From Escherichia coli (GTDB lineage: Bacteria > Pseudomonadota > Gammaproteobacteria > Enterobacterales > Enterobacteriaceae), in NCBI RefSeq assembly GCF_044647545.1, contig NZ_CP172818.1: a stretch of 64,000 nt of DNA. One strand, written 5' to 3'. The position numbers were made by a program, and so were the translations under genes. A model generated the notes under the pieces. That model did not search any database and was not told the DNA's origin. It worked only from the letters and a program-made list of their open reading frames with translations. Below are positions 61,410-63,659 of this stretch, in pieces. Every line of letters begins with the position of its first letter. The stretch's first letter is position 1.

Positions 61410-62081
61410 TCAAAGAATCATTTTATGAATTACAAAGCCTTCACCCAGATCGCTATTGACCTGTTGCCCGCGAAATTGTGCAACTGCACGCAGGCGATCA
61501 TGACGCATATAATCGCGTCGTTCCTGGCTTTTATGTTTTTTTAATGCAGCAAGTTTGACTGTGAAATATTCTTCTTTAACGGATTCAAAAACCTGAGGCA
61601 TAAATGAAAGCCAGGTACTCGGGGTTTCGTAGCCGAGAATTTGTGGAATAGTTCGGCAGGCAACCATTGAGGCTTGATAGACTGCAAGATGATCCTGATG
61701 GCGGTCAGCATCATGCATGGTGTATACACGAATGATTTCTACATCAGACGGAATTTGATTTTTAATGATGTCTTCCAGGGCGGAAATCATATCATTGAGC
61801 TGTAAATGAGCGCGGGTGTCAGCAAAATTAAGATGAATAGTTTGGTGGCACCCTAATATCTTTAGGGCGTTGCGCGATTCTTCATGGCGATCGATTATTC
61901 CATCTGTGCCAGAGTTGCCGGTAGTCATCACCACGGCTGCGATATAAATTCCTTTTTGCGCAAGACGAGCAAGCGATGCGCCACAGCCTAATTCTATATC
62001 GTCAGGATGTGCGCCAATAGCAAGGATACCCTTTCTTTTATTTGCCGAAGAAAGGAGGGCTGAATCTAAAACCTTATCCAC
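61410..62081 (-). CDS. yaiS: PIG-L family (LmbE-like) deacetylase
   Basis: ORF track 61410..62081, 223 aa; AHPDDIE motif near N-terminus; exact start uncertain. Confidence 0.7.
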   Translation of the reverse strand: MDKVLDSALLSSANKRKGILAIGAHPDDIELGCGASLARLAQKGIYIAAVVMTTGNSGTDGIIDRHEESRNALKILGCHQTIHLNFADTRAHLQLNDMISALEDIIKNQIPSDVEIIRVYTMHDADRHQDHLAVYQASMVACRTIPQILGYETPSTWLSFMPQVFESVKEEYFTVKLAALKKHKSQERRDYMRHDRLRAVAQFRGQQVNSDLGEGFVIHKMIL

Positions 62082-62696
62082 TTAATGACACTCCATTTTA
62101 TTTATTATACTACAAGCACAACGATGCACTCAGAGACGTAATCTCTGGCGCAGCCAGATGCTAATTTATAAGTGTTAAATGTTGCTAATAATTGAAAAGC
62201 CAGGGCTTTCAGATCCGGGGGGGCGACTGGTTAATGTTTTTATGCAATTCATATGTTAAGTGTTTGTATGTTTGGTATGTATAGTTATTTTGTTTTATAC
62301 ATTGTATTTAGATGTGATTTAGTTTGTCAATTAATTGCATTTAAAAAATATGTTCTGTGAACAAGTATTGTTTATATACATTATGTGAATGTAATATGCG
62401 AGTGATTGAGAATGATACAGTGATATATATAATGCGAATATAATAGTTTTATTATATGTATTGATATTGATAGAAATAATGAAGTAATAAATCTCGTAAT
62501 GTGGTTGTTTATGCATCACTAAAATGAAGTGTAGTAATTTTCCCAATTGTTAGAACGGAGTAATTGCATATTTAATCTTTCCTTTGCCGTTTTTTTGCTA
62601 AGAATAAAATCATCTGTGCGATAACGACTAATTCTTTTAATGAATGTTTTTATTCCTGAATACTGCTCCCATAACAAGACAGGGGAGCAGACAATC

Positions 62697-63659
62697 ATGG
62701 CAATTTCATCGCGTAACACACTTCTTGCCGCACTGGCATTCATCGCTTTTCAGGCACAGGCGGTGAACGTCACCGTGGCGTATCAAACCTCAGCCGAACC
62801 GGCGAAAGTGGCTCAGGCCGACAACACCTTTGCTAAAGAAAGCGGAGCAACCGTGGACTGGCGTAAGTTTGACAGCGGAGCCAGCATCGTGCGGGCGCTG
62901 GCTTCAGGCGACGTGCAAATCGGCAACCTCGGTTCCAGCCCGTTAGCGGTTGCAACCAGCCAACAGGTGCCGATTGAAGTCTTCTTGCTGGCGTCAAAAC
63001 TGGGTAACTCCGAAGCGCTGGTGGTAAAGAAAACTATCAGTAAACCGGAAGACTTGATTGGTAAACGCATCGCCGTACCGTTTATCTCCACCACCCACTA
63101 CAGCCTGCTGGCGGCGCTGAAACACTGGGGTATTAAACCCGGGCAAGTGGAGATTGTGAACCTGCAGCCGCCCGCGATTATCGCCGCATGGCAGCGGGGA
63201 GACATTGATGGTGCTTATGTCTGGGCACCGGCGGTTAACGCCATGGAAAAAGATGGCAAGGTGCTGACCGATTCTGAACAGGTCGGGCAGTGGGGCGCGC
63301 CGACACTGGACGTCTGGGTCGTGCGGAAAGATTTTGCCGAGAAACATCCAGAGGTCGTGAAAGCGTTCGCCAAAAGCGCCATCGATGCTCAGCAACCGTA
63401 CATTGCTAACCCAGACGTGTGGCTGAAACAGCCGGAAAACATCAGCAAACTGGCGCGTTTAAGCGGCGTGCCTGAAGGTGACGTTCCGGGGCTGGTGAAG
63501 GGGAATACCTATCTGACGCAGCAGCAACAAACGGCAGAACTGACCGGACCGGTGAATAAAGCGATCATCGATACCGCGCAGTTTTTGAAAGATCAGGGCA
63601 AAGTCCCTGCCGTGGCGAATGATTACAGCCAGTACGTGACCTCGCGCTTCGTGCAATAA
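62697..63659 (+). CDS. tauA: Taurine ABC transporter periplasmic binding protein
   Basis: ORF track 62640..63659; ATG at 62697 after AGGGGAG gives 320 aa with a signal peptide. Confidence 0.9.
   Translation: MAISSRNTLLAALAFIAFQAQAVNVTVAYQTSAEPAKVAQADNTFAKESGATVDWRKFDSGASIVRALASGDVQIGNLGSSPLAVATSQQVPIEVFLLASKLGNSEALVVKKTISKPEDLIGKRIAVPFISTTHYSLLAALKHWGIKPGQVEIVNLQPPAIIAAWQRGDIDGAYVWAPAVNAMEKDGKVLTDSEQVGQWGAPTLDVWVVRKDFAEKHPEVVKAFAKSAIDAQQPYIANPDVWLKQPENISKLARLSGVPEGDVPGLVKGNTYLTQQQQTAELTGPVNKAIIDTAQFLKDQGKVPAVANDYSQYVTSRFVQ

Follow-up and report, generated by a model that had tools for sequence, protein, structure and literature searches.

The AT-rich DNA between yaiS and tauA of Escherichia coli probably combines an H-NS-silenced core of the yaiS cassette with a separate tauABCD promoter module

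We wanted to investigate which gene the AT-rich DNA directly upstream of tauA serves in Escherichia coli. The window that we analysed was a stretch of 64,000 nucleotides of E. coli DNA. A prediction made from its letters had described about 400 bp in it, at 62240-62640 (below, the box), as curved, H-NS-bound regulatory DNA that probably holds the tauABCD promoter. We consider it very likely that two things meet here, namely the AT-rich core of the yaiS cassette, silenced by H-NS and carrying a promoter for yaiS, and a separate, adjacent tauABCD promoter module.

Composition and identity of the yaiS/tauA spacer

The box lies in a 615-bp spacer (62082-62696, 69.6% AT) between yaiS on the minus strand and tauA on the plus strand, the neighbours that the original prediction had named. 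The left neighbour, yaiS (61410..62081, minus strand), encodes a PIG-L family deacetylase of 223 aa (Pfam PIG-L match, E 4e-25) and is the first gene of the yaiS-yaiP-yaiX-yaiO cassette. On the right, tauA (62697..63659, plus strand) encodes the taurine ABC transporter binding protein. Its RefSeq-annotated start is the ATG at 62697, and an in-frame ATG at 62640 is not used as a start in that annotation. The spacer was 100% identical to that of E. coli FDAARGOS_497. The original prediction had proposed a comparison with the K-12 tauA upstream region, and this gave 97.9% identity over a query of 616 bases and the same genes on either side (window coordinates equal NC_000913.3 coordinates minus 322,535). 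RefSeq annotates no feature inside the K-12 spacer. The 223 aa of yaiS correspond to the full length of its E. fergusonii and Citrobacter homologues; the K-12 annotation gives the gene 185 aa and has ykiC overlap its end, and in FDAARGOS_497 RefSeq labels it an incomplete pseudogene.

The AT content had been given as about 75%, and we measured 74.8% over the 401 bp of the box (A130 C33 G68 T170), compared with 47.8% AT for the window as a whole. Only 0.04% of 401-bp windows were equally AT-rich, and every one of them overlapped the box; the runner-up stretch reached 69.8% AT. We counted 24 A/T runs of at least 5 bases and just 9 homopolymer runs of at least 4. TpA steps made up 13.5% of the box and 4.4% of the window. 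Both AT content and TpA frequency were thus well above the window average, as is expected of H-NS-silenced DNA.

Other properties of the box did not exceed what its base composition gives. Intrinsic curvature from helically phased A-tracts is often cited for H-NS-silenced DNA, although it does not strictly define it. We did not observe any 10-11.5 bp peak in the periodogram of A-tract centres (96.6% of shuffles reached the observed power). Because helical phasing of the A-tracts was absent, the description of the DNA as curved found no support in this test. Promoter-like sites and H-NS-like motifs were both numerous in the box compared with the rest of the window, but neither exceeded its count in composition-matched shuffles. 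As a simple proxy for promoter-island density we counted TANNNT on both strands, and found 31 in the box against a window mean of 7.5 and 40.6 +/- 6.6 in composition-matched shuffles. Since the motif counts equal those of the shuffles, most of the "island" character is just AT content.

The box mixes two units. The first is the AT-rich core (62240..62558, assigned to no strand; 75.5% AT, with G58 against C20 on the plus strand). The second is the left part of the tauABCD promoter module (62559..62696, plus strand), which comprises the 138 bp that directly precede the tauA ATG and is 66.7% AT. The plus strand of the core had a GC skew of +0.49 (binomial p 2e-5), with T135 against A106; in the other AT-rich stretches of the window the skew ranged from -0.12 to +0.21. 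In direction this skew agrees with the leading strand, but it is about tenfold greater in magnitude, and this strong asymmetry of G over C is left unaccounted for by a model of two units. An exact 11-bp direct repeat, AATGTTTTTAT, stands at both edges of the box (62233-62243 and 62643-62653, 410 bp apart) and is probably a chance occurrence in AT-rich DNA; the repeats in the region were only short ones, at chance level.

Promoter islands are reportedly defined by the Ozoline group as at least 8 PlatProm-predicted start points per 100 bp across at least 300 bp, with in vivo binding of RNA polymerase and H-NS, little full-length transcript and an association with horizontally acquired genes. The acquisition of the neighbouring genes is borne out here by the patchy occurrence of the cassette across E. 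coli genomes and at the tauA loci of other species. The K-12 equivalent of the spacer is promoter island 383994_309, yaiS(-)/tauA(+), in U00096.2 coordinates (Panyukov & Ozoline 2013, Table 1, PMC3661553), one of 78 islands in the published list. According to that source every ChIP study that it took into account found H-NS on the island, which adjoins a gene called foreign by three methods, and promoter islands yield short RNA oligonucleotides (PMC3661553). We mapped it to about 62235-62543 of the window, and a second published K-12 sequence from this locus, P12, falls inside this interval, which cross-checks the mapping.

P12 is a 150-bp parent sequence of Fuqua & Wagner 2024, given in their supplement (PMC11661796). 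Its equivalent in the window is 62291..62440 (both strands), with 148 of 150 bases identical; the two mismatches are T in the window and C in K-12, at 62366 and 62430. Further, a peak of RpoD-holoenzyme SELEX, flagged HNS, was reported in the spacer, and the accompanying table lists the hexamer pairs TTGACA-18-TACAAT toward yaiS and TTGAGA-16-TACAAT toward tauA (Shimada et al. 2014, PMC3946193). Both pairs are the two 11/12 matches found in our own consensus scan. An RpoS SELEX peak is likewise inside the spacer.

The predicted binding of H-NS is therefore borne out by all ChIP studies considered for the island (PMC3661553), the HNS flag of the SELEX peak (PMC3946193) and repression in cis in P12 (PMC11661796). 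The AT-rich feature between yaiS and tauA is real but already known, being the H-NS-bound promoter island of K-12. As a discovery it carries little weight, as the locus is in the promoter-island list, is bound by H-NS and has had its central 150 bp mutagenised in depth. What is new here is small: the link between the core and the cassette, and the presence of the tau promoter module in two deep haplotypes.

The tauABCD promoter module and the distribution of the core

We aligned the spacers of the window, K-12, an E. coli allele of 87% identity and E. whittamii, and obtained a mosaic of conservation. Segment 62082-62151 was conserved, 62152-62250 diverged, 62251-62350 again conserved and 62351-62450 intermediate. 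Conservation was lowest in 62452-62560, where divergence was heavy and included a 9-bp deletion as well as indels of 1 bp, and 62562-62696 was almost invariant. Of the 135 bp of this last segment, 2 differed between the K-12-type allele and the 87% one. It directly adjoins the diverged stretch, and this places the module at 62559-62696. For the B2 strain EC958 and O157, the shared sequence in front of the tauA ATG is exactly 138 bp long, so their comparison yields the same boundary as that of the alleles.

The module contains a conserved block, CCTTTGCCGTTTTTTTGCTAAGAA (62581..62604, plus strand; consensus form CCwTTGCCGwTTTTTTkCTAArAA), which matched the module of O157, B2 and other genera at 20 of 24 positions, at an identical distance of 78 bp to AATACT. 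The alignment score was reached by 1 of 300 shuffles. Farther downstream, a putative tauA core promoter can be read at 62636..62664 (plus strand), with a weak -35 TTTAAT (62636-62641), a 17-bp spacer and a -10 AATACT (62659-62664). From these hexamers, which like the start site itself we infer from the sequence, transcription would begin at about 62671. TAATTCnTTTA (in the form TAATTCyTTTA) and (G/A)AATACTGC were kept in all lineages compared.

The 1997 work of van der Ploeg reportedly found a single Cbl footprint at -112..-68 and binding of CysB to several sites that lie upstream of the tau promoter. If transcription starts at 62671, the Cbl footprint would cover 62559-62603, which we take to match the module edge and the conserved block. 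The block is accordingly a probable core for the site bound by Cbl. Some CysB sites could lie in 62450-62558, and part of the core would then be related to tauA. Local alignment of the ssuE upstream region with the tau module revealed no shared motif above shuffles (scores reached by 118/500 and 444/500 shuffles).

The prediction that the box holds the tauABCD promoter was thus right in one part only. The upstream 82 bp of the module, with the block of the probable Cbl site, lie inside the box; the inferred -35 straddles its right end, and the -10 and the start (about 62671) lie beyond 62640, which leaves the core promoter outside 62240-62640. The approximately 320 bp that make the box AT-rich were missing at every tauA locus that lacks yaiS.

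We surveyed 5,426 complete E. coli genomes for the DNA upstream of tauA. The yaiS-type spacer was present in 4,254 of them (approximately 78%, including K-12). An "empty" frmR/tauA spacer of 305 bp, with frmR directly upstream of tauA, was found in 594 genomes (for example EC958), and 451 genomes, O157:H7 and its relatives, carried a different island (response regulator, histidine kinase, uhpC). The O157:H7 spacer upstream of tauA was 55.6% AT, and the AT-rich core was absent from B2 and O157 E. coli.

A similar distribution was seen outside E. coli. Among 80 TauA loci, one genome per species, 77 had the O157/B2-type module, CTAACcATTGCCGnTTTTTTTCTAAAAACG...TTTTAATTCCTTTATCAAA...GAAATACTGC...CATAACAA...GGGGAGCAGAC. 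The three exceptions were E. whittamii, K. michiganensis, whose upstream sequence was unrelated, and a Klebsiella contig that breaks off 63 bp upstream of tauA. The interval -460..-60 was 39-60% AT in 75 of the 76 tauA loci with enough upstream sequence. The remaining one was E. whittamii (73.5% AT), which was also the sole locus of the 80 with yaiS upstream; the cassette was absent at the other 79. In E. fergusonii the genes yaiS-yaiP-yaiX-yaiO stand beside tauA, with an AT-rich spacer of 667 bp that is approximately 70% identical. The core was therefore present where the cassette adjoins tauA, in most E. coli, in E. whittamii and in E. fergusonii. Conservation wherever tauABCD occurs was seen for 62559-62696, and 62240-62558 was found only with yaiS. 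The core co-occurs with yaiS rather than with tauA, and from this distribution it follows that the AT-rich core travels with the yaiS cassette and not with tauA.

The chromosomal site of the cassette differs among enterobacteria. It lies at another locus in C. braakii, and a contig with the label Y. enterocolitica carries it as well. Its genes encode a PIG-L deacetylase, a GT2 glycosyltransferase, a hexapeptide acyltransferase and the YaiO barrel, and it looks like a module for modification of surface polysaccharide. As for a remnant of a mobile element, there was no phage match, and the sole "plasmid" matches were E. coli records of megabase size.

These results bear on the reading closest to the original prediction, that the whole AT-rich block is regulatory DNA of tauABCD, with distal CysB sites and H-NS acting on the tau promoter and the core needed for it. 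The block does lie directly upstream of tauA, H-NS beside the Cbl site could plausibly spread, and the multiple upstream CysB sites mentioned above would suit such an arrangement, as would the activation of tauABCD by Cbl and its repression by CysB given in RegulonDB-derived text. However, the AT-rich -460..-60 interval occurs only at the one yaiS-bearing locus among 80, 77 of the 80 loci keep the approximately 140-bp module without the core, and E. coli of the B2 and O157 types live without it. Moreover, conservation in the spacer is lowest right beside the module, at 62452-62560, and the tauA-directed strand of 62291-62440 had no promoter activity (PMC11661796). We therefore regard this explanation as unlikely.

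The module itself exists as two deeply diverged haplotypes of equal length and register. The yaiS-linked one is found in most E. coli, in E. whittamii and in E. fergusonii, and the other in B2/O157 E. coli and E. albertii, out to Citrobacter, Klebsiella, Enterobacter and Pantoea. The K-12 type was identical to EC958 and O157 over the last 38 bp only, from AATACT onward. Over -140..-39 it shared 48 of 102 positions in register with the other form, while shuffles gave 28.5 +/- 4.3 (maximum 43 in 2000). With only 48/102 positions in register, the studied K-12 promoter is a derived, yaiS-linked version. This is relevant to studies of CysB and Cbl, since the footprinted tau promoter of K-12 is the one of this haplotype. 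The positions common in register (AA.TGC, CT..C..TTG....TTTTTT.CTAA.AA, T.ATTC.TTTA and AATACTGC) point to bases relevant for activation. K-12 and O157:H7 have one TauA protein accession (WP_001018417.1), and their DNA was identical over at least 38 bp before the ATG and over the first 23 bp of tauA.

Three independent IS1 events were observed in the spacer, at 62461-62469, 62589 and 62663. Strain TL012 has a simple IS1 insertion with a 9-bp duplication. In BL21 an IS1 is present and yaiX-yaiS is deleted; the junction, at 62589, falls within the conserved (probable Cbl) block, and tau regulation may be altered in BL21-type strains. In strain 19SZHZ886Rt the IS1 junction is at 62663, within the tauA -10.

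Promoters, open reading frames and folds in the core and leader

The core contains a sigma-70 promoter directed toward yaiS (62330..62301, minus strand), with the -35 TTGACA at 62330..62325, an 18-bp spacer and the -10 TACAAT at 62306..62301, in agreement with the consensus at 11 of 12 positions. Judged from these hexamers, the yaiS transcript would be expected to start near 62294 and to have a leader of approximately 213 nt. TTGACA-18-TACAAT was unchanged in K-12, the 87%-identity allele, E. whittamii and E. fergusonii. The top match of the box to the H-NS consensus, TCAATTAATT at 62327-62336, overlaps the yaiS-directed -35.

Activity of this promoter was shown with P12. The mutations quoted in that study correspond to the A6 run at 62343-62348 (TTTTTT->TTTwwT) and to GATTTA at 62316-62321 (TAAATC->TAAATT), and these sites identify the bottom strand unambiguously. 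P12-RFP (bottom strand, toward yaiS) was an active promoter whose -35 and -10 were mapped by mutagenesis; when the boxes were scrambled, expression fell 62.6- and 49.7-fold, and it rose when the -10 TACAAT was changed to TATAAT (PMC11661796). Repression of P12-RFP by H-NS acts in cis, by way of motifs that lie upstream of its -35 and -10, and loss of either motif raised expression (+0.53 and +0.51 a.u., respectively). In the delta-hns strain expression rose from approximately 444-506 to approximately 775-828 units, a modest change of about 1.5-1.8-fold, measured on a plasmid (PMC11661796).

There is also a promoter-like site directed toward tauA (62406..62433, plus strand; TTGAGA-16-TATAAT, 11/12). 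Its -10 differs among alleles, being TATAAT, TACAAT, TGCAAT or TGTAAT. At 62430, exact 28-mers identified the T allele in 139 and the C allele in 3,079 of the 5,426 genomes, and the change from C to T turns the TACAAT of K-12 into the consensus TATAAT in the minority allele, which the window carries. The K-12 form was inactive, as P12-GFP (top strand, toward tauA) was classed as a non-promoter (PMC11661796). In the supplementary files of P12 that we examined there was no daughter with the TATAAT variant of the window on the GFP strand.

It is conceivable that in yaiS-linked E. coli (approximately 78%) the H-NS island beside the Cbl promoter adds a further control of taurine use, and that the site with T at 62430 is a Cbl-independent promoter of tauABCD, and we hold this to be quite improbable. 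If it were true, B2, O157 and other enterobacteria would miss a layer of taurine-use control.

Equally doubtful, in our opinion, is the view that insertion of the cassette left the core behind as AT-rich filler without function, its sites being by-products of base composition. The motif counts equal to those of composition-matched shuffles favour this view. In C. braakii and on the Y. enterocolitica-labelled contig approximately 300 bp upstream of the cassette are 69-77% AT without any homology to the E. coli sequence, and IS1 inserts into the core without obvious cost. Filler would not be expected, however, to contain the segment of the core that differs least among E. coli alleles (62251-62350, which includes the yaiS-directed promoter), nor 34 bp around the -35, TTTAGTTTGTCAATTAATTGCATTTAAAAAATAT, that are identical in E. 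fergusonii together with TTGACA-18-TACAAT in spite of 70% identity of the spacer. The approximately 50-60-fold cost in expression of the scrambled boxes (PMC11661796) also speaks against it.

We did not observe any credible gene in the box, in line with the original prediction. The 71-aa ORF at 62331..62546 (minus strand, TTG start, rich in I/Y/N) is not a gene: no Pfam family matched it, the 87%-identity allele had no ORF of at least 40 aa, and in E. whittamii a different frame was open. Rfam 15, searched over 61800-63000 on both strands, gave 0 matches at E<=1, the sequence scan revealed no terminator-like sites, and a 225-nt yaiS leader folded no better than shuffles (z -0.59). Although the ORF is intact in K-12 and short RNA oligonucleotides were reported from promoter islands (PMC3661553), the loss of its frame in two diverged alleles and the blank Pfam, Rfam, terminator and folding results make a hidden gene, other small protein or small RNA hardly credible. 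The proximal part of the presumed yaiS leader (62082..62151, minus strand) is conserved in the allele alignment and carries a hairpin, CAGAGA-CGTAA-TCTCTG, at 62131-62147. The hairpin has a perfect stem of 6 bp and is unchanged in K-12, in the 87% allele and in E. whittamii, and it could not be aligned in E. fergusonii.

Proposed mechanism and comparison with known systems

In the reading that we prefer, a silenced cassette core next to a tau module, the yaiS-yaiP-yaiX-yaiO cassette, itself acquired horizontally, would be regulated from 62240-62558 upstream of it. This AT- and TpA-rich core would be occupied by H-NS and RNA polymerase, the near-consensus sigma-70 promoter at 62330..62301 (minus strand) would fire toward yaiS, and the flanking and overlapping H-NS sites would damp it, which amounts to xenogeneic silencing. 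The tau module at 62559-62696 would work separately: an activator, most likely Cbl, would bind its upstream site and make up for the weak -35, and the -10 AATACT and a short leader would follow. Published experiments have shown the binding of H-NS and RNA polymerase, the repression of the yaiS promoter by H-NS and the inactivity of the tauA-directed strand of the K-12 core. The useful outcome is that the box can be parsed correctly, into control DNA of a silenced cassette and a tau module of approximately 140 bp.

The closest known system is the K-12 promoter island with P12. It is the same locus (97.9% spacer identity, 148/150 for P12), AT-rich, bound by H-NS and RNA polymerase, next to a foreign gene and with a yaiS-strand promoter repressed by H-NS. 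The window differs from it by the minority T at 62430 and by the second difference, at 62366.

H-NS is known to silence the AT-rich regulatory regions of acquired genes, for example at the bgl, proU, LEE or SPI promoters. The yaiS core resembles such regions in its high AT and TpA content beside acquired genes of lower GC, in its occupancy by H-NS, in a promoter overlapped by H-NS sites and in derepression without H-NS. It is unlike them in that the derepression, measured on a plasmid, was small and that no phased A-tract curvature was detected. For yaiS-yaiO we know of no anti-silencer or inducing condition.

With respect to the Cbl/CysB-dependent tauABCD promoter (van der Ploeg et al. 1997; Bykowski et al. 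2002), most of the box 62240-62640 lies outside the promoter module, and the K-12-type module is deeply diverged, with 48/102 positions in register against the form that extends from Citrobacter to Pantoea. In its layout the module nevertheless agrees with the known promoter, in that a weak -35 and a -10 follow the upstream site for an activator and the leader is short.
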